Assembly (NCBI GenBank): GCA_963713805.1 | Contig: CAVQNF010000002.1 | Location: 1-64,000, forward strand | Length of the DNA stretch: 64,000 nucleotides | Origin: an uncultured Alphaproteobacteria bacterium | GTDB taxonomy: Bacteria; Pseudomonadota; Alphaproteobacteria; Rhizobiales; Beijerinckiaceae | Direction: 5' to 3' | Shown here: positions 7,395 to 44,150 of the stretch, piece after piece | Layout of the letters: each line of letters begins with the position of its first letter | How positions within the stretch are numbered: position 1 is the stretch's first letter | Translations under genes and position numbers: made by a program | The notes under the pieces: generated by a model | The model's input: only the letters and a program-made list of their open reading frames with translations | Database searches by the model: none | Told to the model about the DNA's origin: nothing

Positions 7395-7494
7395 CTCAGC
7401 TCGGGATCCGGGCGTGGCAGGGCGGTGCTTCGCCCTGCCACGTTGCGCTTGGCGGCGTCCAGATTGCCGAGACCGCAACCATGGAAGGCGCAGC

Positions 7495-8181: not shown

Positions 8182-8273
8182 GCGACGTGCCGCGGGCAGC
8201 CTGCCAAAGTCACTCAACCGTCATGCGACTCACCTAACGCCGATCGAACGCAAACGAGGATGCGGGAGGTCCG

Positions 8274-9542: not shown

Positions 9543-9626
9543 TTCCGTGTCACCCATAGGCGAAGGAAGTGCCTGGAATTAAGTGCACTGTCACCGAAAT
9601 TGCGGACGGGCGAATCCGGCGCCTTG

Positions 9627-13160: not shown

Positions 13161-13256
13161 GCCGAGGAAGACGAGGCGAAAGACGATCTGCAGGGATTGC
13201 GCCCAGGCGCCTTTCGGCTCGGGAGCTGCGATCGATGTGCGGAGCGTCGGGCGCGG

Positions 13257-16136: not shown

Positions 16137-16384
16137 GCCTTCCCCGAGCAGGAGAAGACAGGCGAGGAAGCTCGAAGAGCCGATGAGATCAGCAGGCGAC
16201 GGCCACGCGCGACCTCCGCGAAGGCCGCCTCGCGCGGCAGCTCCGTCGTTTCCAACGCCGTCCGTTGATCGAGCAAACAGGCACCTCGCCGCATCCGCGA
16301 TGGTCGGGCTCTTGCGGACGCCGGGGGGAAATTAGCAAAGCGGCGTGCCGAGCGCCATGCGGCGGAAAAACGGGCTCCGAGAAG

Positions 16385-16830
16385 AACTGGTTCCCCGCCT
16401 GCGCGGGGATGAGCGGGAGAGGTTTGGCCCCCCCGCTCAGGCCCGCAGCCTCACCCCCGCTCATTCCCGCAGCCTCACCCCGCTCATTCCCGCAGCCTCA
16501 CCCTCGCTCATTCCCGCGAAGGCGGGAATCCAGGCTCGTAGGGCAGCTCCGAGAACAGCTGGTTCCCCGCCTGCACGGGGATGAGCGGAGAGGTTTGAGC
16601 CCTCGCTCATTCCCGCAGCCCCACCCCCGCTCATTCCCGCGAAAGCGGGAATCCAGGCTCGTAGGGCAGCTCCGAGAACAGCTGGTTCCCCGCCTGCGCG
16701 GGGATGAGCGGAGAGGTTTGAGCCCTCGCTCATTCCGGCAGCCCCACCCCCGCTCATTCCCGCGAAAGCGGGAATCCAGGCTCGTAGGGCAGCTCCGAGA
16801 ACAGCTGGTTCCCCGCCTGCGCGGGGATGA
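16385..16830. repeat. Tandem array (about 123-bp period, about 3.5 units) of double-hairpin palindromic elements
   Basis: Recurring modules are ggttccccgc-ctgc-gcggggatgagcgg and gctcattcccgc-gaaa-gcgggaatccagg, separated by a ctcgtagggcagctccgagaacagctgg spacer and gctcattcccgcagcc(c/t)cacccc linkers. Direct repeats are visible at 16506, 16629 and 16752. Confidence 0.8.
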
Positions 16831-16891
16831 GCGGAGGGGTGAAGGCGCCGGCCCCCTCACCTCTCCCGCAGGGTCCCGCAGGGAGAGGTGA

Positions 16892-18910
16892 TCAGCGGCA
16901 GAGGTTCACGCGCGTGCGGCAGACCTCGATGAAGCTCGAGTTGAAGCTGATGAGCGAACCAAGCGGGTTGCCGTTCTCGTCGAGCGTCGGGGCGCTGGAG
17001 TTCTTCTTCATCGTCGATCCGCCCGAATTCCCGGCTTGCGAGCCGCTTGTATCGGAGACTTGCACGATGAGGCTCGCGAGCACCGGATCGATGAAGGAGA
17101 AGACCGGCGTTCCGTTGCCCTGATCCATGCTGAAGGGCACGGGCGGGAGCGAGTTGTTCGCCGCCGTGACGAGAAGCGTGCCGGGCACGAAGGTGATGTC
17201 GAAATTCGGCGAGCTCACGCCGCCGGCGAAGATCTTGAAGCTTCCCGGCGAGCCCGTGGGCGCGTTCGTCGTGAAGCTGAGCATGCCGGTAAGCGCGCTC
17301 GGCCCGAGCCCCCCGGGGAACGGCCCGAAGCTCGCGCTGAACACGGGCTCCGGCGTGCCGACCACCTGCGTTTCGTTGCTCGCCGTGATGGTGAGCGGCG
17401 CCGGCGTGATCGTGCCCGTCGCGTTGACGACGGTGAGCGTGTAATTCCCGCCGCCATTGCCGTCGTTCACCGTGAGCGGGCCGAGCGCCATGGCGCGGCT
17501 TCCCGCATTCGCCGAAGCGAAGCTCTCGGCGAGCCCGCTCACGCTGTCGGTCCCCTTGAGGCCCGACACTTGCGCGCTCACGCTCGAGCCCGTGGTGCCG
17601 TCGAACACCTTGTTGTCCGACACTGCGCTCACCGTGAGCTGCGCCTTGTCGATCGTGCCCGTGGCGTTGACGAAGGTGATGGCGTAATTCCCGCCGCCAT
17701 TGCCGTCGCTCACCAAACCCGACGCCGACAGCGTGCTGCCATTCTGGCCGAGCACATTCTTCGAGCCGAAGGCTTGCGTGTAGCTCGCCGTGTCGTCGAC
17801 GTTGTGGCCCGTGACGATCACGGTTCCACCTGCCGCTCCGCTCATCCCCGCGAAAGCGGGGATCGAGTTCTTCGAGCCATTCCCGGCCGAGCCTGGGTTC
17901 CCGCCTGCGCGGGAACGAGCGGAGGGGGTGCCGCCGCTCACGTCGATGCGGCCCGTCACCTTCGCGAGCTTCGTCGCCTTGATGGTGACGCGCCCGCCCG
18001 AGCCGTCGCGGTTGCTCGCCGAAATGCGGCCCGCTCGCGAAGACGCTGCCGCCCGCCGTGAGCCACACATGGCCGCCGCGCATCGCGCTGCCCGTCGCGC
18101 GAATCATGCCGGTGTGATTGCCGGCGAGCGCATAGACATTGCCGCCCGCGGCCTTGAGCTCGGCTTGCGCCGCCGCGATCGCGCCCTTGTTCCTCACATC
18201 GCCCTTGCCGTAGCGCACCGCCATGCGGCCGCCGCCGACCGACATGTCCTTGAGGAGCACCTCTTGGCCGGCGCCCAGGCCCACCGTCCCGTTCGGCGCG
18301 TTGATCGAGCCCGAATTCACCACCGAGCGCGCGATGAGGAAGACATCCCCGCCGGAGGACGAGATCGAGCCGAGGTTCTTCACCATCCCGTCGCTTCGCG
18401 CCCTTGCCCTCGAAGCGCAAGGTCGAGCCCGCCATGAAGTTCTGGTTCGAGATGTCGAGCGAGGAGGCGACGAAGGAGCCGCCCGTCGTGATGACGCCGC
18501 TCTTGCCGACCACCACGCCTTGCGGGTTCACGAGATAGACCGAGCCCGTGGCGCGCGAGCGTGCCCATGATCTGCGAGAGCGATGCCGCCGGTGACGCGA
18601 TCGAGCGTCGCGCCCATGCCGTTGTTGATCTTGACCGTGCCGCTCTTGCCGATCGAGAAGCTGTTGAAATCGATGATGCCGCGCTGGCTCGATTGCGTGA
18701 TCGTCTCGGTGAGGCCTTGCGTGCCGATCGAGCCCGTGCCTGCGACAAAATGCCCGCCTTGCGGGAGCATGTTCGCCGGGACGGCGACGGGCGAGCCCGC
18801 CTGCGCCGCCGAGGCCGCAGCAAGGAGTGAAGTGCTTGCGAGCGCCGTGCTCGCCGCGAGGCTTGCGAGGAAGCGCCGATGGGCACCACGTCGGGCCGTG
18901 CCGGGAGCCA
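16892..18910 (-). pseudogene. Filamentous-hemagglutinin/TpsA-like exoprotein (TPS secretion domain plus MBG-like repeats), frameshifted; no TpsB partner in the window
   Basis: Signal peptide MAPGTARRGAHRRFLASLAASTALASTSLLAAASAAQA. TPS domain LPQGGHFVAGTGSIGTQGLTETITQSSQRGIIDFNSFSIGKSGTVKINNGMGATLDRVTGG. The sequence continues in other frames (NPQGVVVGKSGVITTGGSFVASSLDISNQNF...; ...ATGSAMRGGHVWLTAGG). The C-terminal part has GNGGGNYxxTxVNATGTI...LT(I/V) repeats. Confidence 0.65.
17841..17930. repeat. One copy of the double-hairpin element inserted in frame inside the FHA-like coding sequence
   Basis: ccgctcatccccgcgaaagcggggatcgag...gggttcccgcctgcgcgggaacgagcgg. It is translated as ...GNPGSAGNGSKNSIPAFAGMSGAAGG... 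inside the ORF. Confidence 0.7.
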
Positions 18911-19280
18911 TGCGCCCCCGCTCGCTCTCGAACACGCCCGCCTCGCGGCAGGCCCCATCAGAATGACGAATGGACATAGTGCCCCTCATTGCGTCAGCAA
19001 GGCCGAAATCGGCCTTGAGGCTTTGCCTCATCAGATCGCTTATGAAACTAGCCTCAACTCTAACTTCGACGTGAGCACGTGGAAGATTGAGCGCCCGTGA
19101 CGTTCGTAAGGCACGCCGAGCACTCTCATACAGCCTCTATTCCCTTTAACACAGCCGGGCCCCACAAGATATCGTGATCGTTGCGGCCCATTTCCCTGTG
19201 CAATTGTCCGGCTTATCTACTACGGATAAATTTGTAAATGGCCGTTCACATGTACCAACTTTTGTTAGCGATGGCCAACA

Positions 19281-19352
19281 AGCCTGGATTCCCGCTTGCG
19301 CGGGAATGAGCGGAGGTGAGGCTGCGGGAATGAGCGGGGGTGAGGCGCGGAA
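19281..19352. repeat. Double-hairpin element fragments (inverted orientation relative to the 16.4-16.8 kb array) abutting the GIY-YIG start
   Basis: cctggattcccgcttgcgcgggaatgagcgg aggtgaggctgcgggaatgagcgggggtgagg is the reverse complement of motifs in the 16.4-16.8 kb array. Confidence 0.7.
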
Positions 19353-19640
19353 ATGAGCTTCTACGTCTATATTCTGGCGAGCCGACGCAACGGCACGCTC
19401 TATATCGGCATGACGGACGATCTCAATCGGCGGGTTTTCCAGCATCAGGAAGGAGTGTTCCCGGGATTCACCAAAAAATACGGGGTCAAAATTTTGGTCT
19501 GGTTCGAGCAGCATGAAACCCGCGAGAGCGCCTTTCGTCGAGAGCGCGCTTTGAAGAAATGGAATCGAGCCTGGAAGCTGGCGCTCATCGAGCGCTCCAA
19601 TCCGACTTGGCGTGATTTAGCCTTGGAACTTGAACCGTGA
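19353..19640 (+). CDS. GIY-YIG nuclease family protein (small, UvrC-N-like)
   Basis: MSFYVYILASRRNGTLYIGMTDDLNRRVFQHQEG...: the GIY-YIG core (YVYIL..GTLYIG..DL.RR...H). 95 aa. The ATG lies inside a repeat motif variant (gcgcggaaATGAGCttc). Confidence 0.85.
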   Translation: MSFYVYILASRRNGTLYIGMTDDLNRRVFQHQEGVFPGFTKKYGVKILVWFEQHETRESAFRRERALKKWNRAWKLALIERSNPTWRDLALELEP

Positions 19641-19666
19641 GCCGTCATCTCATACCTCTCCGCCGT

Positions 19667-19808
19667 CCCCGCTATGCGCTACATTTCCGCTCATCCCCGC
19701 AATGCACTACATTTCCGCTCATCCCCGCAATGCACTACATTTCCGCTCATCCCCGCAATGCACTACATTTCCGCTCATCCCCGCAATGCACTACACATTT
19801 CCGCTCAT
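19667..19808. repeat. 28-bp direct tandem repeat, 5 copies (ccccgcaatgcactacatttccgctcat)
   Basis: Adjacent copies at 19667, 19695, 19723, 19751 and 19779 (the last carries a 2-bp insertion). No spacers, so not CRISPR. Confidence 0.8.
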
Positions 19809-19925
19809 CCCCGCGAAGGCGGGGATCCAGTTCTTGGAGCTGCCCTATAAGCCTGATTCCCGCTTGCGCGGGAATGAGCGGGGGTGAGGCTGCGGGAATG
19901 AGCGGGGTGAGGCTGCGGGCATGAT
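19801..19925. repeat. Complete double-hairpin element plus tail
   Basis: ccgctcat-ccccgc-gaag-gcgggg-atccag-ttcttggagctgccctataagcctg-attcccgc-ttgc-gcgggaat-gagcgg, then gggtgaggctgcgggaatgagcgg. Confidence 0.75.
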
Positions 19926-19945
19926 GGGTGGGCTCAAACCTCTCG

Positions 19946-20035
19946 GCTCATCCCCGCAATGCCCTACATTTCCGCTCGCCCCCGCAATGCACTACATTTC
20001 CGCTCGTCCCCGCAATGCGCTACATTTCCGCTCAT
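19946..20035. repeat. 28-bp tandem repeat, 3 degenerate copies
   Basis: ctcatccccgcaatgccctacatttccg / ctcgcccccgcaatgcactacatttccg / ctcgtccccgcaatgcgctacatttccg. Confidence 0.7.
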
Positions 20036-20145
20036 CCCCGCGAAGGCGGGGATCCAGTTCTTGGAGCTGCCTTATAAGCCTGGATTCCCGCTTGCGCGGG
20101 AATGAGCGGGGGTGAGGTTGCGGGAATAAGCTGGGGCGAGGCTGC
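20028..20145. repeat. Second complete double-hairpin element plus tail
   Basis: Near-identical to 19801..19925 (ccgctcatccccgcgaaggcggggatccagttcttggagctgccttataagcctggattcccgcttgcgcgggaatgagcgg...). Confidence 0.75.
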
Positions 20146-20177
20146 GGAATTCCGTAATTCTCCTAATTCAGAATGCG

Positions 20178-22445
20178 TCAGAAGCTCTTCGACAGCCCGG
20201 CGAGGATCGTGCGCCTTTGCCCGAATTGCGGCGCCGCGACCCCGATGCCGGTGCCGTTGCGAAGCTCGTATTTGCGGTCCGTGAGGTTGATCATGTCGAG
20301 GCGGGCCGTCATCTTGCCCATTCCGGGCGCCTCGAACTCATGCTTGATGCCGGCGTTGACCTGCACGTAATTCGGCTGGCGCTGGGTGTTGGCGAAGCCC
20401 GATCTCAGCCCCGAGCCGGAGATCAGATCGGTGGTGAGCAGCGTGTCGACCGAGCCGATAGGAGGCGCCGCCCGAGATCGTGAAGCGCTGGTCGTGATCG
20501 AGATAGACCCAATGGATTCGCGACGAAGGCGAGCTCGTCGGCGGCGAAGAAGAACTGGCTCGAGATGATGTTCTTTCCTTGCGCGCGCGAATAGGCGAAA
20601 TTTCCGTAGAGTGAAAGATTGTCGATCTGGTAGGAGGCCGTGACCTCCGTCCCGTAGACCTTCCCATGCTGATAATTGAAGGGCGCGAAGACGAGCGCCT
20701 GGCCGAATTGGCCTTCATCGATCAGATCATTGGCGCGTTTGTAATAGGCGTCGAGGCCGAGCTGGAAATCGGGTCCGAATTTCTGGATGACGCCGGCGTC
20801 GAAATAATTCGCGCGCTCGGGCTTCACGGGAGCTATCCGCGGTGACGCTCGGAGCCGCCGTCGTGTTGGCGAATTTGGAGATCGTCTCGGGTGCGATCAA
20901 TTCCAGGGGCGGGGGCGTGAAATAGCGCGCGTAGCCGAGATGGACGGTGGTGCCGTCGAGCGGCTTGTAGACGAGATTGACGCGTGGTGAGAGCTGGTTC
21001 TTGTCGATGAATTGGAAGCTCTCGTCGAAGCTCGCGCCGTAGTTGAGCGTCAGCTTGTCGGAGATCTTCCACTCGTCCTGCGCGTAGAGGCCCGCGAGAT
21101 AGCCGATCTTCCTGCTGTTGTCGGAGATGGCGAAGGGCTGATCGATCGGGTTCCCGTTCGCGTCGAGCGGCAGCACGGTCGACAGATTGCTCGAGCGCGC
21201 GCGTTCCACATCGGCGAAGAAGCCGGCGCGAAAGGTGTGCGACGGATCGATCTGGTAGCTCAGATCGCCTTGAAGGCCGTTGGCGAAATTCTCATGGCGC
21301 ACATTGGAGGCGACGCCATTGAACAGGACGATCGCCGACCGGATCGGGGAAGAAATGCGTCAAGGTGTATCGGCTGAAATAGGCGAGCTGCATGTTCAGG
21401 TCGCCGAGCGATTTCTGCAAGGCGAGGATGTTGAAATTCGAATTCCTCCAATTGCTGCTCGCGCAGGCCCGCCGAGTTGAAATCCGAAATGCCGAAGGCG
21501 GTGAAGGCGGGCATCTGCCCGGGATTGTTGGGAAGCCGGAATTGGCTCACCGCCGTTCCGGAGATGAAGCTCAAGCGCGTGCTCTCGTCGATGATGCCGG
21601 AAAGGTAGAGAAAGCCCCTGCCCTGCTCGGTGAAATCCTTCACCGGAACGAGCGAGTGGGTGGGATTTTCGATGCCGATGTTGTTCTGGAGGTAGCTTCC
21701 GGAAACGAAGTAGTCGAGCTTTCCGGTCGAGCCCCCATAAGAGAAGCTCGGCAGGAAGGTCTGGCGCTGCCCGCCGTAAATCGACACTTCGCCACCGGGC
21801 TCGAGCGTTCCGCTCTTCGTCTCGATGTCGACGACGCCGGCGGTTCGGTAGCCGTATTCGGCCGGCAGCGCTCCGGTGATCAGATCGATGCGGCGCGCGA
21901 AGCGGGTGTCGAACAATTGCGAGAAGCCGCTGATCGTCTCGGGGATGATGATGCCGTTGATCCGAAATTGCAGGTTCGCATGATCGCCGCGCACATGGAG
22001 CTGGCCGAAGGAGTCCTGGGCAACGCCGGGCGCCTGAAGCAAGGTCTGGCTGAGCGATGCATTGTTGCCGAGCGGCTGGGTATCGATCGCCTCGCGGTTG
22101 ATCTCGTAGCTCGAGGCGCCGACCGCGGTCGAGATCTGGTTGCGCGCCTGGTCGAGCCGTGCGGCCGTGACCGTGATGTCGAACCGGTCGCTTTGCCCGA
22201 CTTCGGTCACCACGCTTCTCGTCGGACCGGGCTGCACGGCCGGGCCGCTGGTCGCCGGCGCGGCGGGCTCCCCGGTGCCCGCTGTCGTCTGAGGCGGGGC
22301 GGTGCTCGCAGGGGCTTGAGCGAAGGTCTGGGCTTGAGCGAAGGAGGTGAAACGAAACCAAGGCCCAGGAGGAGACAGAGGAGGAGACAGAGGAAGAAAC
22401 GCCTGAAGGCAACGAAAAAAGCGAAAGGCACCGGGGACACTCCAT
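20178..22445 (-). pseudogene. TonB-dependent outer-membrane receptor, at least 6 frameshifts
   Basis: Plug and barrel segments are spread across frames (VTAARLDQARNQISTAVGASSYEINREAIDTQPLGN...; RHENFANGLQGDLSYQI...; ANYFDAGVIQKFGPDFQLGLDAYYK...). The C-terminal ...RRTILAGLSKSF* carries the TonB-box-end aromatic residue. Signal peptide FFLCLLLCLLLGLGFVS. Confidence 0.75.
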
Positions 22446-22860: not shown

Positions 22861-24097
22861 ATGGATGTCTACCAGCGTTTGTCCGTCGCGAAGCGGGTGA
22901 ACGGAGCGGGGCTGCTGACGCGCCTCGGCGGCAGCCTCATGGATGCGCAAACGCTCGACGCCATGCGGGAGGCCGCGGGCGCCTTCGTCGACATCGCCGA
23001 ATTGCAGACGCGAGCGGGCGAGATCATCGCCGCGCCATACGGGAGCCCAAGCGGGCATCGTCACCGGCGGCGCGGCCGCGGCACTCACCCTTGCGACGGC
23101 GGCCTGCATCGCGCGCAACGATGTGGCGAAGATGGAGCGCCTGCCGGATACCGAGGGGATGGCCGACGAGGTCATCATCCACCGCGCCCATCGCACCGGC
23201 TATGACCACGCCATCAGGGCGGCAGGCGCGCGCCTCGTGGAGATCGGCCTCAATGATCGCGGGGTGGGCGCCGGCGTGCGTGATCTCGAAGCTTGGGAGA
23301 TCGAAGCGGCGATCGGGCCGAAAACGGCGGCGATCGCCTATACGGCGACGCCCGATCTCGAGCCCGCGCTATCCCGCGTCGTCGCGGTGGCGGAGCGTTT
23401 CAAGCTCCCGGTCATCGTCGATGCCGCGGCGCAATTGCCTCCCAAGGAGAATCTTCGCCGCTTCATCGAGGAAGGCGCGGCCCTCGTCGCCTTCAGCGGC
23501 GGCAAGGCCATCCGGGGGCCCCAAGGAACAGGAATCCTGTGCGGCCGCGAGGAACTCGTCGCCTCGGCCTTGATCCAGATGCTCGATCTCGACATCCTTC
23601 CCGAAACCTGGACGCCGCCCGAAGGTTTGCTCGCCCGGCATTTCGCCGATCGCTTTCCCCATCATGGCCTCGGACGCGGCTTCAAGGTCGACAAGGAATC
23701 GATCGTCGGGCTCGTGGTGGCGCTCGAGCGTTTCGTCGCTTGCGACCTCGAAGCGGAGATCGAGGGACGCCGCGAGCTCCTCTCGCGCATCGTCCGGACG
23801 ATTTCCGAGCTTCCCCATTGCCGCGCACGCGAGATCAGGCAGACGAAGGGGAAATATCCGGCGCTCGACATCGCGATCGATGTGGCGGCGCTCGGCAGCG
23901 ACGCTTATGCGGTGAGCCGTGCGCTGCAGCGCCATGACCCGCCGGTGCATCTGGGAGAGCGCCACGCCCGGCAAGGCGTCCTCGTCGTCGAACTCCGCGG
24001 GACTTCGGCCGGGCGATGAGGAGATCATCGCCCGTGCCCTGCGCATCGTCCTCACCGGCGCGGCGAGGACCTGTGCGACAACGAAGGAAAAGCAGTG
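22861..24097 (+). pseudogene. SelA-like / DgaE-like fold-type-I PLP-dependent enzyme, 2 frameshifts
   Basis: MDVYQRLSVAKRVNGAGLLTRLGGSLMDAQTLDAMREAAGAFVDIAELQ...; shift at about 23040 to ...IVTGGAAAALTLATAA...AFSGGKAIRGPQGTGIL...; the C-terminus continues in a third frame (...GDEEIIARALRIVLTG...*). GAGGGAGGGA RBS. Confidence 0.6.
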
Positions 24098-24867
24098 ATG
24101 TCCACGCGGCTCTTCGATCTTTCCGGGCGCACCGCGCTCGTCACCGGCTCGTCGCGCGGCCTCGGGCGCGCCATGGCGGAGGGTCTCGCGGCAGCCGGCG
24201 CCCGCATCGTCCTGCACGGCCAGGATGAGGCACCGCCTCTCCGCGGCGGCCGAGGCGATGCGCGGCGAAGGCCATGATGTGCGAAGCGTCCGCTTCGACA
24301 TCGCCGACGAGGCGGCGATCCTTACCGCCTTCGCGCGCCTCGATGCCGACGGCGTCGCGATCGACATCCTCGTCAACAATGCCGGCATCCAGCTGCGCAA
24401 GCCGATGCTCGAGCTTGCGACGCAGGAATGGCGCAAGGTGATCGACGCCAATCTCACGGGCGCCTTCATCGTCGGCCGCGAGGCAGCGAAGCGGATGGTG
24501 CCGCGCGGACGCGGGAAGATCGTCAATATCGGCTCGCTCACGAGCGAAGTGGCGCGCGCCACCATCGCGCCTTACGCGGTGTCGAAGGGCGGCATCAAGC
24601 TGCTCACGCGGGCCATGGCGGCCGAATGGGCCGCGCATGGCATCCAGGCGAATGCGATCGGGCCGGGCTACATGCTCACCGACATGAACAAGGCTCTCAT
24701 CGAGGACGAGAAATTCGACGCCTGGGTGAAGGCGCGCACGCCGGCGAAGCGTTGGGGGCGCCCCGAGGAACTGGTCGGGGCCGTGATCTTCCTCGCCTCG
24801 CGAAGCTTCCGATTACGTCAACGGCCAGATCATCTATGTCGATGGCGGCATGCTTGCGGTTCTGTGA
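24095..24867 (+). pseudogene. Gluconate 5-dehydrogenase-like SDR, 2 frameshifts
   Basis: MSTRLFDLSGRTALVTGSSRGLGRAMAEGLAAAGARIVLHG; shift at about 24235; ...DILVNNAGIQLRKP...NIGSLTSEVARATIAPYAVSKGGIKLLTRAMAAEWA...; 1-nt insertion at about 24815; then ...SDYVNGQIIYVDGGMLAVL*. Confidence 0.65.
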
Positions 24868-24885
24868 GCGCGGCGCGGCCCTGCC

Positions 24886-25404
24886 ATGACCTCGCAAGAG
24901 CTCCCCTATCGCACCAATGTCGGGATCGCGCTCTTCAACAGGCAAGGGCGCGTGCTGATCGCGCATCGTTTGCGCAATGACGGGCCGGAGATCATCCTTC
25001 CCGGCCATGAATGGCAAATGCCGCAAGGCGGCGTCGACCCGAACGAAGAGGCGCTCTCGGCGGCGCGTCGCGAATTATGGGAGGAGACGGCGGTCTTGAG
25101 CGCCGATTACCTCGGCGAGGTTTCCGACCCGATGACCTATGAGTTTCCGCCCTATGCCGGGCCGTGGCATCGGCTCTGCGCCTTCCGCGGCCAGCGCCAG
25201 CGCTGGTATGCGTTCCGCTTCACGGGGGATGATGGCGAGATCGATGTCGGCCGCGGCGAAGGCGGCGCCGACCCGGAATTCTCGCACTGGCGCTGGGAGC
25301 GGCTCGACAGAGTGGCGGCTCTCGTCGTGCCCTTCAAGCGCGAAATCTACGAGCGCGTGGCTCTCGAGTTTCGTGCCTTCGCCGAACCGGCACAATCAAG
25401 TTGA
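24886..25404 (+). CDS. rppH: RNA pyrophosphohydrolase RppH (Nudix hydrolase)
   Basis: LPYRTNVGIALFNRQGRVLIAHRL...WQMPQGGVDPNEEALSAARRELWEETAV: Nudix box. Intact. Confidence 0.8.
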   Translation: MTSQELPYRTNVGIALFNRQGRVLIAHRLRNDGPEIILPGHEWQMPQGGVDPNEEALSAARRELWEETAVLSADYLGEVSDPMTYEFPPYAGPWHRLCAFRGQRQRWYAFRFTGDDGEIDVGRGEGGADPEFSHWRWERLDRVAALVVPFKREIYERVALEFRAFAEPAQSS

Positions 25405-26869
25405 ATCCAGCCTCACCCGAAAGGCATCGACCAGGTCCGCACATTGGTGAAGCTCTTCATCGCTTCCACCACGCCTTCCTTGTAGCCAAGGCCTGAATCC
25501 TTGATGCCGCCGAACGGCGACATCTCGATGCGGTAGCCGGGCACTTCCCAGATGTTGACCGTGCCGACCTCGAGCTCCTGGATGAACCGCGTGATGTAGT
25601 CCATGCGGTTGGTGCACACGCCCGACGACAAGCCGTAGGCGGTCGAGTTCGAGATGCGGATGACGCTCGTCGATCTCGTCCGGAACCCGGATGATCGGGA
25701 TGACCGGGCCGAAGGTCTCCTGATGCACCAGCTCGCAATCGTAAGGCACGCGATCGACCACGGTCGGCGGAAAGAGCGCGCCGTTCGCGGGGCGCTCCGT
25801 GGAGCAGCTCGGCGCCTTTTGCGACGCGCGTCGTCGACGCGTCGCTCGAAAAGCTTCGCCGCCTCTTCGTTGATGACCGTGCCGACGTCGACGGAAGGGT
25901 CCATCGGATCCCCGCATTTCAGCTTCTTGGCCTTGGCGAGGACGAGCTCGACGAAATCGTCGGCGACGCTCTCGACGACGAGAATGCGCTTCACCGCCGT
26001 GCAACGCTGGCCCGAATTCTTGGTCGCGCCCTGCACGGCGAGCTCGGCCGCCTTGTCGAGATCGGCGTCCTCCATGACGATCAGCGGGATCGTTGCCGCC
26101 GAGCTCGAGCACCAGGCGGCGATAGCCGGCCTTCTCGGCGATGTATTTGCCGACGCGCACCGAGCCGGTGAAGGTGATGAGGTCGCAGTCCTCATCGGTG
26201 ATCATGGCATCGCCCATGGTGCGCGGATTGCCGGTGACGACGGAAAGCATCTGCGGCGGCAGCCCGGCCTCGTAGAGCACGTCGGCGAGCGCGAGCGCGG
26301 TCAGCGGGCGTGAGCTCGGTCGGCTTCAGCACGACGCGGTTGTTGGTGGCGATCGCGGGGGCGAGCTTGTGGCTCACCATGTTGAGCGGGATGATTGAAC
26401 GGGGTGATCGCCGAGATGACGCCGAGCAGCGGCAGGCGCGTCGTGAAGATCTTGCGGTTCTTGCCGTTCGGGCTGATGTCGCAGGAATAGATCTCGCCGT
26501 CGTCCTTGATGGTGAGCTGCGCCGCGAAGGACCAGACGTCGAAGGCGCGGCTTGCTTCGTAAAGCGAATCCTTCCAGCACAACCCGGATTCGGCGGTGAT
26601 CAGCCGCGCGAACTCTTCCTTGCGGTCGCGCAAGATCTCGGCCGTCGTCTGCAGGATGCGCTGACGCTCGATAGCGCGTGAGCTTCGGCCTGAAAGGCGC
26701 GCGCCTGGCGAAGGCGTCCCGCACATGCTCGGGCCGTCCGGCCGGAACGGTGCCGATCACCTCGTTGGTGTAGGGATTGAGCACCTCGACGACGCTCGTC
26801 GGTCGTCGACGAGCGTGCCGGCGATCCGCATGCATTCCTTGCGGATGGCCGGCTTCGCTTCGATATTCA
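25396..26869 (-). pseudogene. phnY: Aldehyde dehydrogenase, probably phosphonoacetaldehyde dehydrogenase PhnY (by context), at least 6 frameshifts
   Basis: ALDH-family segments lie in three frames ([23 protein letters not shown]...[14 protein letters not shown]; ...[12 protein letters not shown]; [24 protein letters not shown]; [49 protein letters not shown]; [37 protein letters not shown]...; ...[32 protein letters not shown]). GAGAGG RBS. Adjacent to phnA and phnW. Confidence 0.65.
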
Positions 26870-26930
26870 TCGCATTCACCTCTCGGTGACGCGTAGCTCT
26901 CGCGCGAGCTGCCTCGCACCTGTCAACGGC

Positions 26931-28256
<1,326 letters not shown>

Positions 28257-29436
28257 TCAGACGCTCAGGCAGCCTTGCGCGGCGGGATCGCTCACGCCCA
28301 TCTCGTCGAGCACCTCGCGCACGGCCGCAAGACGCCCGCTGCATCTCCTTTTCGCCGATGCGCCCGATGCAGCCGATGCGGAAGCAATCCGCGACGGTCA
28401 GCTTGCCCGGATAGATCACATAGCCACGCTCCTTCAGCCCATCGTAGAAAGCGCTGGAAAACGAAGCGCGGATGGGTCGGCATGTGGAAGGTGACGATGA
28501 TCGGCGCCTGCAGATGATCGGGAAGCAAGGTGCGAAAGCCGAGCTCCCGCATGCCCGACACCAGGATGCGGCAATTTTCGCGGTAGCGACGGCCACGCCC
28601 CTCGACACCGCCCTCAGCCGCGAATTCCCGCAAGGCCTGGTGGAAGGCGACGATCACATGGATGGGGGGCGTGAAACGGTATTGCCCGGTCTTCTCGAGA
28701 TTCGCCCATTGGTCGTGCAGGTCGAGGACCAGCGTCGTCGCCTGACCCTTGGTCGCGACGAGCGCCTCGCGCCGGCAGATGACGAAGCCGAGGCCGGGCA
28801 CGCCCTCGATGCATTTGTTCGAGGAGGCGGCGACCGCATCGACATGGGCTCTTCGCACATCGAGCGGCAGCGCCCCGAAGGCGCTCATCGAATTGAGGAG
28901 AAAGCTCTTCCCATGTGGCGTCGGCGAGCGCGCCGATCTCGTCGATCGGGTTGAGGATGCCGGAGGTCGTCTCGCAATGGACCGCGAAGATATGGGTGAT
29001 CGAAGGCGTGCGCCTCAAGATGCGCTCCACCTTCTCGAGGTCGGGCAACGGTGTCCTCGGGCGTCTCGTGCACGAGCGTGCGGCGCCGCGCGATCTCGAG
29101 GATGCGCTTCGCCCGATGCCCGTAGGCGCCGTTGACGAGGAGGAGCACCCTCCCCTTCGGCGGCACGAAGCTCGTCAGCATGGCTTCGACCGCGAAGGTG
29201 CCGGAGCCTTGCACCGGCACCGTGACGTAGTCCTCGCCGCCTTTGGCGATTTCAGGCAGGCGTTGCAGCACCGCCTTGTTGATCGCGAGAAAGCCCGCAT
29301 CGCGCGAGCCCCAATCATGCACCATGGCCGCCTTCACGCTGCGTGACGTGGTGAGGGGGCCGGGCGTCAGGAGAAAAGGGTCGCCGGTCTCGGACGCGGC
29401 TCTTCGGAGAGGTTTGGAGGATGAGTTATCCGTCAT
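28257..29436 (-). pseudogene. phnW: 2-aminoethylphosphonate--pyruvate transaminase PhnW, at least 3 frameshifts
   Basis: MTDNSSSKPLRRAASETGDPFLLTPGPLTTSRSVKAAMVHDWGSRDAGFLAINKAVLQRLPEIAKGGEDYVTVPVQGSGTFAVEAM...; SSNKCIEGVPGLGFVICRREAL...LVLDLHDQWANLEKTGQYRFTPP; [40 protein letters not shown]; the C-terminus ...[21 protein letters not shown] is in another frame. GGGAGA RBS. Confidence 0.7.
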
Positions 29437-29574
29437 GCTTCTCCCGTGAGATTTCCAGATCGCTCTTGATTCCAGATCGCTGTTGGCGCGACGGCGCAAA
29501 CGCCCGCTCGCCGATCGCGCCATGGTTTCTAGCGGCCTCAACAAAATCAGTCAAGTTGCCACATAATGCCACTT

Positions 29575-30450
29575 TCATGTCAGGCGCGTGACAGTGCCTA
29601 GAACATCCGCATGCAGAAAAGGCCGCCGAGAATGAACGCTCCCGACACGGCTCGCACACGCGTCATCGGCTCCTTCAGGAAGACGACGGCGATCAAGCCT
29701 GCCGAAAAGCACGCTCGTCTCGCGGATCGCCGCCACGAGCGCGATGGGCGCGACCGTCATGGCCCAGATGGCGATCCAATAGGCGGCGAGCGACATCGCT
29801 CCGCCGGCGAAGCCGGGCGCGAGGAAGCCGAGCGCCGGCTTCACCCCTTTGAACCCTTTCCACAGGAGACAAATGATCAGCATCGGATAGGCATCGACCG
29901 CGAACAGGGCAGCGGCGTAGGCATTCGCATCCCCAGCCGCGCGCGCGCCCATGCCGTCGACGATCGTGTAGGAGGAGATGGTGATCGCGGTGAGCAGCGC
30001 GCAGCTCACGGCGACCTTGCTCGGTGCCATGAGATGGCGATGGCCGCGCAGCGAAATCAGGAGAACGCCTGCGCCCAGAAGCAGGATGCCGATCCCGTTT
30101 CCGGCGCTGATCGGATCGTGCACCAGGGCGAGCGAGGCCAGCGCCGTCATCAGCGGCGCGGCGCCTCTTGCGATGGGGTAGATCTGGCCCATGTCGGCGC
30201 GGCGATAGGCCTCGGCGAGGAAGAGGTAATAGCCGAGATGGATGACCACCGAGGCGATGATCCACGGCCAGGCCTCGGCCTTGGGCAGGCCGGTAACCAG
30301 GAGCGCCGGCAGCGCGATCACGCCGCAGGTGAAGCAGATCAGCGTCATCGCGAGAAAAGGATCGAGCCTGATCTTGATGAGCGCGTTCCAGCCCGCATGC
30401 AGCGCGGCCGCGATCAGCACCGCAAGGAAGACGAAGAGGCTGAGGTGCAT
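29575..30450 (-). CDS. EamA/DMT-family transporter (10 TM), C-terminal end possibly frameshifted
   Basis: MHLSLFVFLAVLIAAALHAGWNALIKIRLDPFLA...: an EamA-like duplicated 5-TM architecture. The last 40 or so residues (RLDRRRLPEGADDAC...) look out of frame. Confidence 0.6.
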   Translation of the reverse strand: MHLSLFVFLAVLIAAALHAGWNALIKIRLDPFLAMTLICFTCGVIALPALLVTGLPKAEAWPWIIASVVIHLGYYLFLAEAYRRADMGQIYPIARGAAPLMTALASLALVHDPISAGNGIGILLLGAGVLLISLRGHRHLMAPSKVAVSCALLTAITISSYTIVDGMGARAAGDANAYAAALFAVDAYPMLIICLLWKGFKGVKPALGFLAPGFAGGAMSLAAYWIAIWAMTVAPIALVAAIRETSVLFGRLDRRRLPEGADDACASRVGSVHSRRPFLHADVLGTVTRLT

Positions 30451-30465
30451 GGATCGGCCGCGGCT

Positions 30466-31239
30466 TCACGCCTGCGCCTGGATGACCGGCCAGCGCCGGG
30501 CCGCGAAGGCTTGCGCGATCCGCTTCGGCGGCGGCTTGTCGACGATGAGGCCCGCGATCCGCGGGACGGTCGCCATCTTCACGGGCGTGCGACGCTCGAA
30601 CTTGCCGTGGTCGGCGAGCACGAAGACCTTTTGGCCGGCCTTCATCATCAAGTGGCGTTGCTCGCAAGCAAGTCGCGAATAATCGGTGAGTTCGCCCTCC
30701 GGCGAGATGCCGCCCACTCCGATGAAGGCGAGATCGACACGGAAATGCACGAGCGCCGAGAGCGTGTCGATCCCGAACGCCGCCTCGTCATTGGGATCGA
30801 TCTCACCACCGAGCATGGTCACCTTCACACCCGATGAGCGGCACAAGAGAAGCGCGATCGGCAGGCTGTTGGTGAGGACGGTGAGGTCCTTGCGCTCCAC
30901 GAGCGCATAAGCGAGCGCGAGCGTCGTCGACCCCGAATTGAGGATGACCACCATGCCGTCCTCGATGAAGCTCGCGGCCTTCCGGCCGATCGCGGCCTTG
31001 CCCGGGCGCGTTCGCCGCCTGGCGCGCGGCGAGGGAAGGCTCGGCCGTCGCGCCCCGCGCCGCCCCACCGTGCACGAGATTGGCACGCCCCTGGTCGGCG
31101 AGCGCCTTGAGGTCTCGGCGTATGGTCTCGCGCGAGACACGCCAGCCGCTCGGCGAGGAGCGAGACGCTGACCGCCCCCGAGGCGTCGAGCGACGTTGAC
31201 GATATGATCCTGGCGACTGATGGCGAGCGGACGATTCAT
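30466..31239 (-). pseudogene. DeoR/GlpR-family transcriptional regulator, frameshifts in the N-terminal HTH region
   Basis: The C-terminal sugar-phosphate-binding domain is intact in the main frame (AASFIEDGMVVILNSGSTTLALAYAL...VFVLADHGKF). The HTH (LLAERLGVSRETIRRDLKALADQG) sits in another frame. MNRPLAISRQDHIVNVARRLG at the start. Confidence 0.6.
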
Positions 31240-31514
31240 GAAAGGCGAAGCCCGGTCGGAGCGCGATGCGAGTTGTGGCATTTTGTGGCAATTTCTGCAA
31301 GCGTCGGAGTTTGTCGTCGCGCGCGGATGGTCTTGCTCTTTGCTCGCGCAATTGCCATGGTTTGCGCGGTCATCCAGATATGAGGAACTCCTCCAGCGCC
31401 TTCGGCAACGGGCAACGCCCGAACCGAAAGCAGGGCGTGAAAGGATCGGGCGGCTACCCCGGACGGCCACATTGACGAATTGCGGCGACAGCCGTTTTTC
31501 AGGAGCCGTCCCCG

Positions 31515-32315
31515 ATGCCCGATTCCACGCGGCGAAGGCCGCGCCACCTGTTGCGCACCTTGGCCGAAGCGCCCGCCTGGAAGCTCGGCACCGGCGCCAT
31601 GGCTCTCCTTGGGGGCGCTTTCTTCATAGGGGTCCTGTTCCAGTCCGGAAGGGATGCCGACCGGGAGCGCACGAAAACCGGCGTCGTCGACATCATCGAG
31701 AACGAGCGCAATGCGAAGGCCGAGAAGGATCGCGCCTTTGCCGACCTGACGATCGAGAATACCGAGCTCCTCCGGCGCCTGCGTTCGCTCGACGCGCAAT
31801 TGAGCGCCTCGCGCGCCGAGAAGGATCGGCTCGTGGCGCAAGGGGATTTCCTCAGATGGTACACCGCCGACCTCAAGAGCCCGAGCGAGGCCGGCAATCA
31901 ACGGCTCGTCGATACGGTCTGCTCGCTTTGGAAAGACGGCAGGCAATGGATCAGGATCGAGCGCCAGCCTCTCCTTCTGTCCGTCGCCGACATCAAGGAA
32001 GGGCGCCTCACGCCCGCCCTGCAATTGCTGCTGGTGCAAAACTTCGTGCCGCTCGAGCCCCTCATGAAGATACGGCTCGGGGACGCCGCGTCAGGAAGCG
32101 CGACGCCGATATCCGCCTCGGGGCGGCCCGCCCCGCGCCCCTCTGCAAGCGCCACTATGGGGAGCGCCAATCCGCAGATCCCGGCCTCGATTGAAAAGCA
32201 GCTTCAGGACATCAGGGTCGCGAAGTTCATCGTCTTCCCCGATGGGTCGCGCTTCGAGCTTCCTCAAGCTGTCGCGGTCGCGGTCCAGATCCGCAGGGAA
32301 TGCGGCCTCTTCTGA
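31515..32315 (+). CDS. Hypothetical membrane-anchored coiled-coil protein
   Basis: 266-aa ORF with CAGGAG RBS, an N-terminal TM segment (LGTGAMALLGGAFFIGVLF) and a coiled-coil segment (ENTELLRRLRSLDAQLSASRAEKDRL). No known domain. Confidence 0.45.
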   Translation: MPDSTRRRPRHLLRTLAEAPAWKLGTGAMALLGGAFFIGVLFQSGRDADRERTKTGVVDIIENERNAKAEKDRAFADLTIENTELLRRLRSLDAQLSASRAEKDRLVAQGDFLRWYTADLKSPSEAGNQRLVDTVCSLWKDGRQWIRIERQPLLLSVADIKEGRLTPALQLLLVQNFVPLEPLMKIRLGDAASGSATPISASGRPAPRPSASATMGSANPQIPASIEKQLQDIRVAKFIVFPDGSRFELPQAVAVAVQIRRECGLF

Positions 32316-32390
32316 CAGGAAGGCCGTTCGAGCATCCGACCGAGCGCGGCCGCCGACGAGGCTCGCGAGCCATGACGGCGCCGATGATCC

Positions 32391-33866
32391 TCAGCCCCTG
32401 CGATGCGACGCGATCAAATGCTGATACTCGAAGAAACTGTCCTTGGGGACGCGCTGCTGCGTGTCGAAATCGACATGCACGATGCCGAGCCTGTGCGAAA
32501 ATCCCGTGGTCCATTCGAAGTTGTCGAGGAGGGACCATAAGAAATAGCCATGCAATCTGGCCCCATCGGCACGTGCCCTGAGCGCGGCTTCGACGTGTCG
32601 GCGAACGTAGAGGCTGCGAAGGCGGTCGCGCACCCTTCCCTCATCCACCTCCTCGTCTCCTGCCCCAAACCCCGCGCCGTTTTCGGTGATGTAGATGACA
32701 GGATCGCCATAATCGGTGTGCAGGCGCATCAGCAATCGGTAGAGCTCGTCGGGAACCACAGGACCGTTAAAGGCTTCGAGCGCGTCGGGATTGGCCGTCG
32801 CCCATTCGGCTCCGAGCGGCGCGGAAGCGTCAGCCTTGAAATAGGAAGGCGCGTAGTAGTTCACGCCGACGAAATCCGGCCGGTTCTCCGAGATGAAGCG
32901 CATGTCCGCCGGCGCCGGCCGGAAATCGGGGTTGAGCTTGCGGTGCAGCGCAGCGAGAGGCTCCGGGTAGCTGCCCTTGAAAATGGGGTCGAGAAACCAG
33001 CGGTTCTGAAGGGCGTCCATCGTCGCGGCGGCATCGATATCCTCCTGTCGATCAGGATCGGCGGGAACCGTCGGAGTGAAGTTGAGGGATATGCCGATCT
33101 CGCCCTTGAGGCCGAGCCGCCGATAGGCATGGATCGCTTGCGCGCTCGCCAACAGGATGTGATGCGCAGCGCTCGATTGCTGGGCATAGACCTGCGAGGC
33201 GCCCGATTTTTCGTCGGCCACGCCCTCGAGAATGCGGTGGATCGAGGGCTCGATCATGAAGAGCTCGACGAAGGGTTCGTTGACCGTGATGAAGCGCCTC
33301 ACCCGATCGCCGAAGGCACGAAAGATGACTTCGGCATATGCTTCGTACCAATCGACGGAGGCGGGATTGGCCCACCCTCCCCGCTCGGCGAGCTTCTCGG
33401 GCATATCCCAATGATAGATGGTCACCACGGGCTCGATCCCGTTCTCGATGAGATCGTCGATCAGTTGCCGATAATGCGCGAGCCCCGCCTGATTCACCTC
33501 TCCGGTGCCCTCCGGCAGGATGCGCGACCAGGCGATGGAAAAACGGTAGGAATTGATACCCAGGCGCTTCATGAGCGCAATATCGCGAAGGTATTGTTGC
33601 CTGTCATAAAGATTATCGGCGATATTCCCCGTTTCCTGCCGGCCGATGACCGGCTTCGTTACTTGGAGCTCATTGGTGTAGACGTCCCAATTCGACAGAC
33701 CCTTGCCGTCCACCTGGTATCCGCCTTCGACCTGGTACGCCGAAGTCGACACGCCCCAAAGGAACACGTCCCGATCCCGCTCCGGTGCGGGGACGGCAGC
33801 TCCGACACAAAAGCTCAACGCGAGTACCGGCAATGCGGTCGCGATTTTTCGCGAGATCGAACGCAA
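32391..33866 (-). CDS. GH1 beta-glucosidase with signal peptide
   Basis: FLWGVSTSAYQVEGG, TIYHWDMP, ITVNEPF and ITENGAGF motifs. Intact 491 aa. Confidence 0.85.
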   Translation of the reverse strand: MRSISRKIATALPVLALSFCVGAAVPAPERDRDVFLWGVSTSAYQVEGGYQVDGKGLSNWDVYTNELQVTKPVIGRQETGNIADNLYDRQQYLRDIALMKRLGINSYRFSIAWSRILPEGTGEVNQAGLAHYRQLIDDLIENGIEPVVTIYHWDMPEKLAERGGWANPASVDWYEAYAEVIFRAFGDRVRRFITVNEPFVELFMIEPSIHRILEGVADEKSGASQVYAQQSSAAHHILLASAQAIHAYRRLGLKGEIGISLNFTPTVPADPDRQEDIDAAATMDALQNRWFLDPIFKGSYPEPLAALHRKLNPDFRPAPADMRFISENRPDFVGVNYYAPSYFKADASAPLGAEWATANPDALEAFNGPVVPDELYRLLMRLHTDYGDPVIYITENGAGFGAGDEEVDEGRVRDRLRSLYVRRHVEAALRARADGARLHGYFLWSLLDNFEWTTGFSHRLGIVHVDFDTQQRVPKDSFFEYQHLIASHRRG

Positions 33867-37767: not shown

Positions 37768-38257
37768 ATGTGGTACAGATTCTTTGGCCGCCGCCTTGCT
37801 GTTCATCGGATTGGGCGGCAAAGCCGATGCGGCGACCGCGACCGGGACTTTTCAGGTCCAGATCACCATTCAGGCGACTTGCATCCTGGTGAGCGCGACC
37901 AATCTCAATTTCGGCACGAACGGCGTCCTCTCGTCAGCCGTCACGCAGACGAGCGCCATCTCCGTTCAGTGCACCAACACCACGCCCTATAATATCGGGC
38001 TCAACGCCGGCGTGAATGGAGGCTCCGTCACCACCCGTCAGATGAAGGGCGGCCCCACGAGCCAACTCATCAACTACTCGCTCTTCAGCAATCCGGGCAT
38101 GACCCAGAATTGGGGCGAAACCATCGGCACCGATACCGTCGCGGGCACCGGCACAGGGGCCACGCAGTCCTTCACGGTTTATGGGCAGGTTCCTGCCCAG
38201 ACGACGCCCTCCCCTGGCGCCTATACCGACACGATCACGGTGACGGTCACCTATTGA
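37768..38257 (+). CDS. Csu-type (archaic chaperone-usher) major pilin, spore-coat-U (SCPU) domain
   Basis: ...GLGGKADAATATGTFQVQITIQATC...TVTVTY*: a CsuA/B-like fold with the terminal TVTVTY donor strand. The N-terminus MWYRFFG then AAALLFIGLGG requires a 1-nt frameshift at about 37787, or else a TTG start at 37784. Confidence 0.7.
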
Positions 38258-38289
38258 TCAAACGGGCAATTCTGTCCTCGGAGGTGAAG

Positions 38290-39006
38290 ATGCGTTTCGC
38301 TCTCTGCCTCGTTCTCGCATTCACGGGCTCGACTCGCATGGCGAATGCGGCCTCGCTGCAAGTCTCGCCGGTGCTCGTCGAGGTGACCGCTCCCGGAGCG
38401 ACGGCGACCATCACGGTGCGCAATGACGGAAAGGCGACGCTCGCCACGCAGTTGCGCGTTTTCCGCTGGTCGCAAAGCGACGGCGAGGAGCGGCTCGAGC
38501 CGACCGAGGATGTCGTCGCCAGCCCGCCAGCGGTCGAATTGAGGCCGCAGCAGGATTATGTGGTGCGCATCGTGCGCACCACGAAGGCGCCTGTGGTCGG
38601 CGAGGAATCCTATCGCCTGTTCGTCGACGAGCTGCCCGACACGCAGCAGATTTCCGGGGTCAAGCTCGTCGTTCGCCACTCCTTGCCCGTGTTCTTCGAT
38701 GCGCCCGATGCCGCGCCGCCGGACCCGGCGTGGACGCTCGCGCGGACAGGGCGCGGCCTCGTATTGAATGTCGCCAACCACGGCGAGCGGCGCATCCGGC
38801 TTTCGGCCGTCAGAATTGGCGACGCCACCGGACGTACACTGGCGTTGAACGAAGGGCTCGTCGGTTACGCGCTCGGACGCTCGACCATGAGCTTCCCCAC
38901 GAGAATCGCGGGCTCGGCCCCCAGAAACGGCACCAGGATCTCGATCAGGGGGAACACCGAGCAAGGAAGCTTCAGTGCGACGGCGGTGGTCCAGGCCACG
39001 CGCTAG
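38290..39006 (+). CDS. Pilus assembly chaperone (PapD/CsuC-like)
   Basis: Signal peptide MRFALCLVLAFTGSTRMANAA. LQVSPVLVEV...TITVRNDG..A...QLRVFRW..............LRPQQDYVVRIV are PapD-like N-domain features. GGAGGTGA RBS. Confidence 0.8.
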   Translation: MRFALCLVLAFTGSTRMANAASLQVSPVLVEVTAPGATATITVRNDGKATLATQLRVFRWSQSDGEERLEPTEDVVASPPAVELRPQQDYVVRIVRTTKAPVVGEESYRLFVDELPDTQQISGVKLVVRHSLPVFFDAPDAAPPDPAWTLARTGRGLVLNVANHGERRIRLSAVRIGDATGRTLALNEGLVGYALGRSTMSFPTRIAGSAPRNGTRISIRGNTEQGSFSATAVVQATR

Positions 39007-43865: not shown

Positions 43866-44150
43866 TTTGATCGTCCTGATTCCCAAGCCGGGAAACCGCC
43901 AGCCGGCGGCTTCCCGGCAGCCGTCACCGAGCTCAAAGCGCGCGATCAACCCACATCGCATCCGGCGTCGATAGAAGAGCTTGCCGTGCGCTCGATGCAG
44001 CCTCCCCCCGATCTGACGAATAATCTCCTGTGCCCTCACCCGGTCTGAACCGGGACGCGGCGTTGAAGCGGCAAAGAGGTGAGAATATACTTTCAGGCGC
44101 GGTGGCGACGTGGGGGATGCCCCGGTTGGCTACGACAGTGGTGCCTCAGC

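Follow-up and report, generated by a model that had tools for sequence, protein, structure and literature searches.

Five genes lie on the minus strand at positions 25413-31239 of the window (by which we mean the whole 64,000-nucleotide stretch of DNA that was analysed), in the order deoR, a gene for an EamA/DMT membrane protein, phnW, phnA and phnY. The raw open reading frame fragments match the NCBIfam models TIGR03250 (PhnY), TIGR02335 (PhnA), NF010006/TIGR02326 (PhnW), TIGR03340 phn_DUF6 (EamA) and models of the DeoR family, and these matches, together with the gene limits on the minus strand, bear out the gene content, order, strand and coordinates given in the original prediction. Every one of the five reading frames is broken, the breaks being those seen relative to L001, an orthologous locus that is intact. 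The deoR gene (30466-31239, minus strand) is predicted to encode, once repaired, a DeoR/GlpR-family transcriptional regulator of 256 amino acids and carries three single-base (+1) insertions, at 31193, 31141 and 31006; eamA (29598-30450, minus strand), predicted to encode an EamA/DMT-type membrane protein of 283 amino acids after repair, carries one, at 29696. Five +1 insertions (29049, 28920, 28450, 28332 and 28278) interrupt phnW (28265-29436, minus strand), the predicted gene for a 2-aminoethylphosphonate-pyruvate transaminase of 388 amino acids after repair, and six (28130, 28030, 27895, 27755, 27520 and 27238) interrupt phnA (26931-28190, minus strand), that for a phosphonoacetate hydrolase of 417 amino acids. 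The most heavily affected is phnY (25413-26870, minus strand), whose repaired product would be a phosphonoacetaldehyde dehydrogenase of 482 amino acids and in which ten +1 insertions are accompanied by a single -1 deletion, at 26708. The three enzyme genes had been expected to be frame-broken, and they are; the breakage is not limited to them, however, but extends to deoR and eamA.

The identities of PhnW, PhnA and PhnY are established by sequence. Repaired PhnW scores 514.5 bits against NF010006 (cut-off 296) and 466 bits against TIGR02326 (cut-off 400.8), and its best matches among solved structures are the 2-aminoethylphosphonate (AEP) transaminases 7e7g (5e-119) and 1m32. Repaired PhnA reaches 549.6 bits against TIGR02335 (cut-off 407.55), with S. 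meliloti PhnA as the best solved-structure match (3szy, E 1.7e-178). Likewise, repaired PhnY reaches 809.8 bits against TIGR03250 (cut-off 635.65), the next model scoring 453 bits and falling under its own cut-off, and its best solved-structure match is S. meliloti PhnY (4i3t, E 4e-207), with the next aldehyde dehydrogenase at 3e-94. Given that equivalog cut-offs are passed after repair and that the closest structures are those of S. meliloti for PhnA and PhnY and those of AEP transaminases for PhnW, the view that these are true members of the pathway and not generic paralogues has held up. PhnA deviates at 0 of 111 invariant columns and shares with 3szy the motifs SFTNPNN, TTDYVQH, TADHGM and RSHGG, which we take to include the metal and nucleophile motifs, their catalytic meaning presumably being that given by the published structures. 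PhnY deviates at 0 of 186 invariant columns and has in common with 4i3t both a motif of 15 residues and PFNHPLNM. PhnW keeps the PLP-lysine motif SSNKC; in its LLDSMS motif, where 94 of 95 orthologues have Asp, the window has Asn, a residue that one other orthologue shares. The Asp is presumably the PLP-binding position, that is, the aspartate that binds the pyridine nitrogen, and its replacement could be either a genuine variant or a base error.

The two genes that precede phnW can be placed less narrowly. Repaired DeoR aligns over its full length to the GlpR (E about 1e-45 to 2e-45) and AgaR (1e-43) models, its residues 8-248 covering positions 5-246 of 253 in the GlpR model with an N-terminal helix-turn-helix and a C-terminal sugar-phosphate-type sensor domain; its score lies under every equivalog cut-off, and consequently no specific orthology is assigned. 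It also carries a D100N change in a column that is invariant among 44 orthologues. The sole NCBIfam match of the EamA protein is TIGR03340 phn_DUF6, aligned over its full length (positions 5-279 of 281), and its 139.8 bits, set against a cut-off of 288.15, place it in a related clade and not among the equivalog members. The protein shares with phn_DUF6 the same kind of genomic association, namely with phosphonate-utilisation genes: eamA lies directly upstream of phnW in the window, and an EamA homologue is found near phnA in 36 of the 109 loci with enough upstream DNA for judging. DUF6 homologues have been reported in phosphonatase and C-P lyase operons, and the regulators that the same 2012 survey lists for phnA operons are GntR and LysR only (PMC3266647). 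Further, in a 2021 study of the AEP transporters AepXVW, AepP and AepSTU, most PhnWAY/PhnWX carriers were without a known transporter (PMC8316502).

Of the 160 PhnA loci that were examined, 17, belonging to Hyphomicrobiales and Burkholderiales, have the order deoR-eamA-phnW-phnA-phnY intact, and this order is therefore neither new nor particular to this genome. Intact relatives of the kind that the original prediction proposed to search for thus exist, and its observation that the DeoR/EamA arrangement differs from LysR-type clusters is correct (at L050, an Ensifer locus, a LysR gene is divergently oriented), but its suggestion of novelty was overstated. The same order, in identical orientation, occurs for example in L001 (MAG MFD09368.bin.1.55), Paralcaligenes ureilyticus, Paraburkholderia monticola, P. 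atlantica, Methylopila and Hansschlegelia, where the reading frames are uninterrupted whereas those of the window are broken. L001 is syntenic with the window from ~17.4 to 45.4 kb at 87% DNA identity (87.4% over 5.9 kb). Identity to the PhnA of the window reaches 95% in an intact relative, and was at best 90% in the genome scan and 88% in the metagenome scan. The PhnWAY pathway of S. meliloti 1021 (Borisova et al. 2011, as cited in PMC3266647) comprises the same three enzymes, with alignments that are nearly full length. It differs from the window in having a LysR-type instead of a DeoR-type regulator, in adjoining the AepXVW ABC system (PMC8316502) where the window has an EamA/DMT membrane protein, and in lacking the 25 insertions and one deletion that the five genes of the window carry as deposited. 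Judged by its sequence, the locus is an ordinary, widely conserved AEP-degradation operon, with a textbook pathway and an arrangement that was already known and is found unbroken in many sequenced soil bacteria.

The phn operon forms the right-hand end of a stretch of ~23 kb (~8192-31302, limits approximate) in which clumped single-base insertions affect coding regions on both strands. Insertions lie at 18560 and 18584 (by comparison with the relative L165), five more fall in 20178-22235 and four in 22864-25404; seven events are packed within 26672-26896, and three within ~230 bp of an ATPase gene. A DUF3419 gene is split across three frames. The ATPase open reading frame (658 amino acids) contains an out-of-frame middle section, and for this reason a long open reading frame was not accepted as a sign of an intact gene. 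The left limit is a break in synteny with L161 (96% identity) at 8191, and the right limit a break with L001, L002, L081 and L082 at 31301-31303. Beyond these limits the checkable flanking genes are all intact, with about one-third of the right flank being without any reference. A sliding codon-usage map, which is rough, was used solely to pick out doubtful places in the flanks, and a reference-free frameshift HMM on codon-position base composition was too noisy and went unused. Two of the places picked out, at 37.8-39.0 kb and 52.2-53.3 kb, are explained by separate genes and a low-complexity open reading frame. A separate origin was considered for bglB, which is 78.6% identical to L001, and was rejected because the identity drops likewise in all four relatives, with synteny preserved.

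Single-base insertions account for 34 of the 35 frame-breaking coding events, a proportion far from the natural insertion fraction of 0.43 (p = 7.6e-12), which derives from bacterial pseudogenes with 300 insertions to 396 deletions of varied sizes (Danneels 2018, PMC6054270). The inserted base equals a neighbour in 10 of 34 cases, against a random expectation of 0.44, which is not slippage. Every checkable insertion is absent both from L001 and from the closer L164 (91.5% identity), and this applies likewise to L165 (94% identity) elsewhere in the block. When the insertions are deleted, five full-length open reading frames appear with 0 internal stops in 1,831 codons. Their dN/dS against L001 is 0.07-0.15; L001 and L002, both intact, give 0.06-0.10 when compared with each other. 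Private codon changes are synonymous to non-synonymous in a ratio of 68:30 in the window and 32:14 in the intact L164 (Fisher p = 1), and the window deviates at 1 of 514 invariant columns. The hallmarks of natural pseudogenes, deletion-rich indels of varied size on the one hand and nonsense codons or a raised dN/dS on the other, do not appear here. The description of the pathway as fully pseudogenised thus finds no support as a biological state: nearly all breaks are non-templated +1 insertions, nonsense codons number 0, selection is not relaxed, and a 23-kb stretch has been hit whatever the gene.

In light of these properties, the reading that we favour, with a probability of roughly 0.78, is that the window holds a normal, probably functional AEP operon, and that the frameshifts are single-base insertion errors of the record in a poorly corrected stretch of ~23 kb and not biological decay. 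The changes are private to the record, consist of indels only, are regionally clustered and fall without regard to gene function, as would be expected of an artefact. The likeliest cause is a part of the assembly that was poorly corrected; compatible with this would be a long-read patch of low depth, a strain-specific path through the metagenome assembly or another kind of non-biological corruption. PacBio raw-read errors have been reported to consist mostly of insertions (PMC6879543), and long-read assemblies are known to produce false frameshifts, which likewise are indels only and fragment genes under purifying selection (PMC12007338), although the events in the window stay within a single 23-kb stretch instead of spreading over the genome. 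An error process that touches no more than 23 kb would require a special cause, and this counts against an artefact. So does the observation that consensus errors in polished PacBio assemblies of high-GC genomes have been described as mainly G/C homopolymer deletions (PMC8574707), whereas the insertions in the window are not concentrated in homopolymers. Further, the Asp-to-Asn change in PhnW and the D100N change in DeoR could be genuine inactivating changes, which would also speak against an error of the record.

These two substitutions are among the arguments for a genuine and very recent pseudogenisation, in which the operon and its neighbours have fallen into disuse and are decaying by frameshift: Asn stands where 94 of 95 PhnW orthologues have Asp, the DeoR change lies at an invariant column, several neighbouring genes are frame-broken along with the five of the phn locus, and the left edge of the stretch is a strain-variable junction. 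Such an origin nevertheless appears unlikely, as natural decay is richer in deletions and mixed in size, and what is seen is 34 of 35 events that are 1-nt insertions, mostly non-templated, with no nonsense codon among the 1,831, an unchanged dN/dS, and a private synonymous to non-synonymous ratio equal to that of an intact relative. On a rough estimate of ~10 substitutions per indel, the 17 insertions compared would be accompanied by ~170 neutral substitutions, and the non-synonymous changes seen number 30. Moreover, the damage occupies one continuous stretch and does not track gene function.

That the insertions are real, whether through an unknown localised mutational process in the 23-kb segment or in genes that are still decoded through them, is very improbable. 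In the former case, a process such as error-prone synthesis would have put non-templated bases across the segment shortly before sampling, which would suit events that are clumped and restricted to one stretch in genes that otherwise appear freshly functional. However, no repeats or mobile-element ends were found flanking the limits of the block, and we know of no bacterial process that, over 23 kb, adds random single bases at a rate of ~0.2-0.5% per site and causes neither substitutions nor deletions; this origin is hard to credit. Expression despite the extra bases, by programmed +1 frameshifting, quadruplet decoding or RNA editing, would in turn suit the purifying selection that apparently persists in the reading frames before and after each insertion, and the net shift of 0 mod 3 in deoR, phnA, phnY and the ATPase gene. 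The objections are that the insertion sites have no sequence motif in common, that their codon phase (12:8:5) is not significantly uneven, and that none of the relatives has them; further, the old frame runs on for 7-242 codons before its next stop, which gives no shifty-stop signature, and neither a tRNA gene nor an Rfam frameshift element or match occurs in the window. Recoding is the most far-fetched of the explanations considered. If true, real insertions would represent bacterial gene inactivation or recoding of a kind not yet described.

If the frameshifts are indeed errors of the record, the operon would most likely work as follows. A DeoR-family regulator would control the co-directional unit deoR-eamA-phnW-phnA-phnY, and the EamA/DMT protein would most plausibly serve as a membrane transporter of the phosphonate substrate or of a product, the transport step and its direction both being putative. 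PhnW would transaminate AEP with pyruvate to yield phosphonoacetaldehyde, PhnY would oxidise phosphonoacetaldehyde to phosphonoacetate, and PhnA would split the C-P bond by hydrolysis, releasing acetate and phosphate, a reaction chemistry carried over by analogy from the established PhnWAY pathway of S. meliloti. The value of the finding is mainly cautionary, in that the evidence favours a faulty 23-kb stretch of sequence and the biological significance is small. Taken at face value, the record would lead a reader or an annotation pipeline to score, probably wrongly, the loss of AEP catabolism, of a betaine-lipid-like gene pair, of a P-type ATPase and of other genes. More broadly, that a putative DeoR regulator and a putative EamA/DMT transporter accompany phnWAY in many Hyphomicrobiales and Burkholderiales provides a modest lead.

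The minus-strand ORF fragments at 25.4-31.5 kb match five kinds of NCBIfam model, which identify phnY (25413-26870; TIGR03250), phnA (26931-28190; TIGR02335), phnW (28265-29436; NF010006/TIGR02326), eamA, encoding an EamA-type membrane protein (29598-30450; TIGR03340, phn_DUF6), and deoR (30466-31239; DeoR-family models), all on the minus strand. These matches and the gene limits bear out the original prediction as to the genes, their order, their coordinates and the many frame breaks, although breaks that it had placed in phnW, phnA and phnY occur in deoR and eamA as well. Deletion of the inserted bases yields five full-length ORFs with 0 internal stops in 1,831 codons. In the NCBIfam profile search, repaired PhnW, PhnA and PhnY all exceed the curated equivalog cut-offs; the best solved-structure matches of the repaired enzymes are Sinorhizobium meliloti PhnA, S. 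meliloti PhnY and 2-aminoethylphosphonate transaminases, and the PhnA and PhnY motifs taken here as catalytic match the S. meliloti structures exactly. Given these results, PhnA and PhnY are not generic paralogues lacking active-site residues, and the same applies to PhnW with the exception of a single Asp-to-Asn change: the aspartate of its LLDSMS motif, Asp in 94/95 orthologues, is Asn in the window (28900-28902, G-to-A). After repair, the regulator is a generic member of the DeoR/GlpR family by profile search, and the EamA protein is related to TIGR03340 at 139.8 bits, below the cut-off of 288. Operons of this kind are already known.

Scanning one genome per species with stitched PhnA as the query recovered a contig of the uncultured alphaproteobacterial MAG MFD09368.bin.1.55 (L001), in which deoR, eamA, phnW, phnA and phnY are uninterrupted and ordered as in the window, with 87.4% identity over 5.9 kb and synteny from ~17.4 kb to 45.4 kb of the window. 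This syntenic locus lacks an SCPU-type (spore coat protein U) chaperone-usher pilus cluster that the window carries at 37784-42387, made up of a subunit, chaperone, 817-aa usher and two-domain SCPU protein. A closer intact relative, L164, was recovered via a protein cluster (91.5% nucleotide identity; PhnA 94.5% identical). In pairwise alignment to L001, nearly all breaks consist of one extra base in the window. Of the 35 events that break the frame in the coding DNA of eight genes, 34 are +1 insertions and the other is a -1 deletion, whereas curated natural bacterial pseudogenes hold 300 insertions and 396 deletions of varied sizes (PMC6054270; binomial p = 7.6e-12 against that insertion fraction). 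Three-way alignment shows every insertion that could be compared to be missing from both L164 and L001, often between identical flanks, as in GACTTC[G]TCGAGC against GACTTC-TCGAGC in the relatives. The +1 insertions form a class distinct from the intergenic indels among relatives, which run in both directions and in several sizes, like ordinary divergence.

The damage is regional and not confined to the phn operon. It affects the DUF3419 (BtaA-like) and methyltransferase genes at 8274-10257, with DUF3419 (8274-9542) split over three frames at consecutive profile coordinates; a P-type ATPase gene (10227-12203) whose ORF has a ~230-bp out-of-frame section; Band_7/SPFH genes at 12.5-14.3 kb; a haemagglutinin-like gene at 16.9-19.0 kb, with +1 insertions at 18560 and 18584 relative to the comparison locus L165 (94% identity); a 747-aa gene at 20178-22235, with five +1 insertions; and a 439-aa gene and an SDR gene at 22943-24980, with four within 22864-25404. 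The insertions are clumped, with seven events in 26672-26896, three in ~230 bp of the ATPase gene and none in a 1.9-kb Band_7 ORF (14268-16136) that lies inside the damaged stretch. All checkable genes outside ~8.2-31.3 kb are intact: 5623-8191 against the comparison locus L161 (96% identity) and bglB against L001 have no coding indels, the SBP_bac_5, P450, Pyr_redox_2 and DHDPS ORFs each give one end-to-end Pfam profile match, and 5458-6306, 44145-45359 and 59494-60240 each give a single blastx HSP. Closer inspection cleared two suspect spots in the right flank. The left limit coincides with the end of L161 homology at 8191/8192, 10 nt past a stop codon, and the right limit with the end of alignment for four relatives at 31301-31303, beyond which lie a window-specific segment of 1.1 kb and, after it, bglB. 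No flanking repeats were found at either limit.

Several other features of the window may be recorded here. The 1.1-kb segment (31303-32399), between deoR and the beta-glucosidase gene and absent from four relatives, contains an ORF (31515-32315, 266 aa) that has neither a Pfam match nor a homologue in the loci retrieved. REP-like repeats of ~120 nt, 76-97% identical and in both orientations (16374-16840, 17833-17936, 19254-19358, 19649-20149), surround a GIY-YIG nuclease ORF (19353-19640), whose protein is also known in identical form from two JGI metagenome contigs and from a contig of 0.2-1 Mb. G+C is 0.67-0.73 at 10000-19000 and ~0.56-0.66 in the rest of the window. A long, putatively coding histidine/glycine-rich ORF (GGHEGGGHDGGGHGHDGG... 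and then an N/G/S-rich tail) at 52218-53300 is overlapped by ORFs in other frames.

Insertions aside, the genes give no indication of decay. Their dN/dS against L001 is 0.07-0.15, compared with 0.06-0.10 between L001 and L002, both intact. With codon changes polarised using L001, private changes number 68 synonymous and 30 non-synonymous in the window and 32 and 14 in L164 (Fisher p = 1). By a rough reckoning that assumes ~10 substitutions per indel, our own figure and not a measured value, drifting genes with the 17 indels of the compared stretch would be expected to carry well over 100 non-synonymous changes, against the 30 observed. Of 514 columns that do not vary among 36-160 orthologues, the window departs at one, DeoR D100N, a count that falls inside the range for intact sequences. 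This change (codon 100, ~30940) is likewise G-to-A and replaces the ILDSGST aspartate, conserved in nearly all orthologues; it and the PhnW change could each reflect true variation or a base error.

The inserted base equals a neighbouring base in only 10/34 cases, where random insertion would give ~44%, and therefore neither replication slippage nor homopolymer miscounting accounts for them. Programmed frameshifting finds no support, as the insertion sites have no shared motif, codon-phase bias or nearby stop, and searches of the window found neither tRNA genes nor an Rfam match. The breaks are insertions only, non-templated, private to this record, blind to gene function and regionally bounded, and come without any relaxation of selection; together these features point to an error in the sequence record and not to biology, and pseudogenisation as a biological state, as originally proposed, is most likely wrong. 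In agreement with this reading, insertions are reported to dominate the raw-read errors of PacBio (PMC6879543), and false frameshifts are known from long-read assemblies (PMC12007338). Both the type of error and the boundaries would be consistent with a low-depth long-read bridge, or with a strain-specific metagenome-assembly path polished less than the shared flanks. For polished PacBio consensus of high-GC genomes, in contrast, homopolymer-deletion errors are described (PMC8574707), a pattern from which the window insertions differ.

In genome and metagenome scans, 17/160 PhnA loci have the full deoR-eamA-phnW-phnA-phnY order, among them loci from named species of Paralcaligenes, Paraburkholderia, Burkholderia, Methylopila and Hansschlegelia. 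In the 109 loci where the sequence upstream of phnA extends for at least 4.5 kb, homologues near phnA number 36 for DeoR, 36 for EamA and 58 for LysR, and EamA is found with either regulator. The locus sample is biased toward the query's relatives. At one locus (L050, Ensifer sp. LC11, 7838-11221), an iron-containing alcohol dehydrogenase gene replaces phnW directly upstream of phnA, alongside a divergent LysR gene; this arrangement could channel 2-hydroxyethylphosphonate into the PhnY and PhnA steps. A 2012 survey described phnA operons as "almost exclusively" GntR- or LysR-controlled and reported DUF6 homologues from phosphonatase and C-P lyase operons alone (PMC3266647), a 2021 transporter study named AepXVW, AepP and AepSTU with no mention of EamA (PMC8316502), and the deoR-eamA variant is not described in the literature accessible to our search. 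Given the locus counts and this absence, the DeoR-EamA pairing is a real, recurring and uncharacterised variant that is not special to the window. The only lead worth keeping is what the EamA and DeoR partners may do, a question that would be better addressed in an intact relative.
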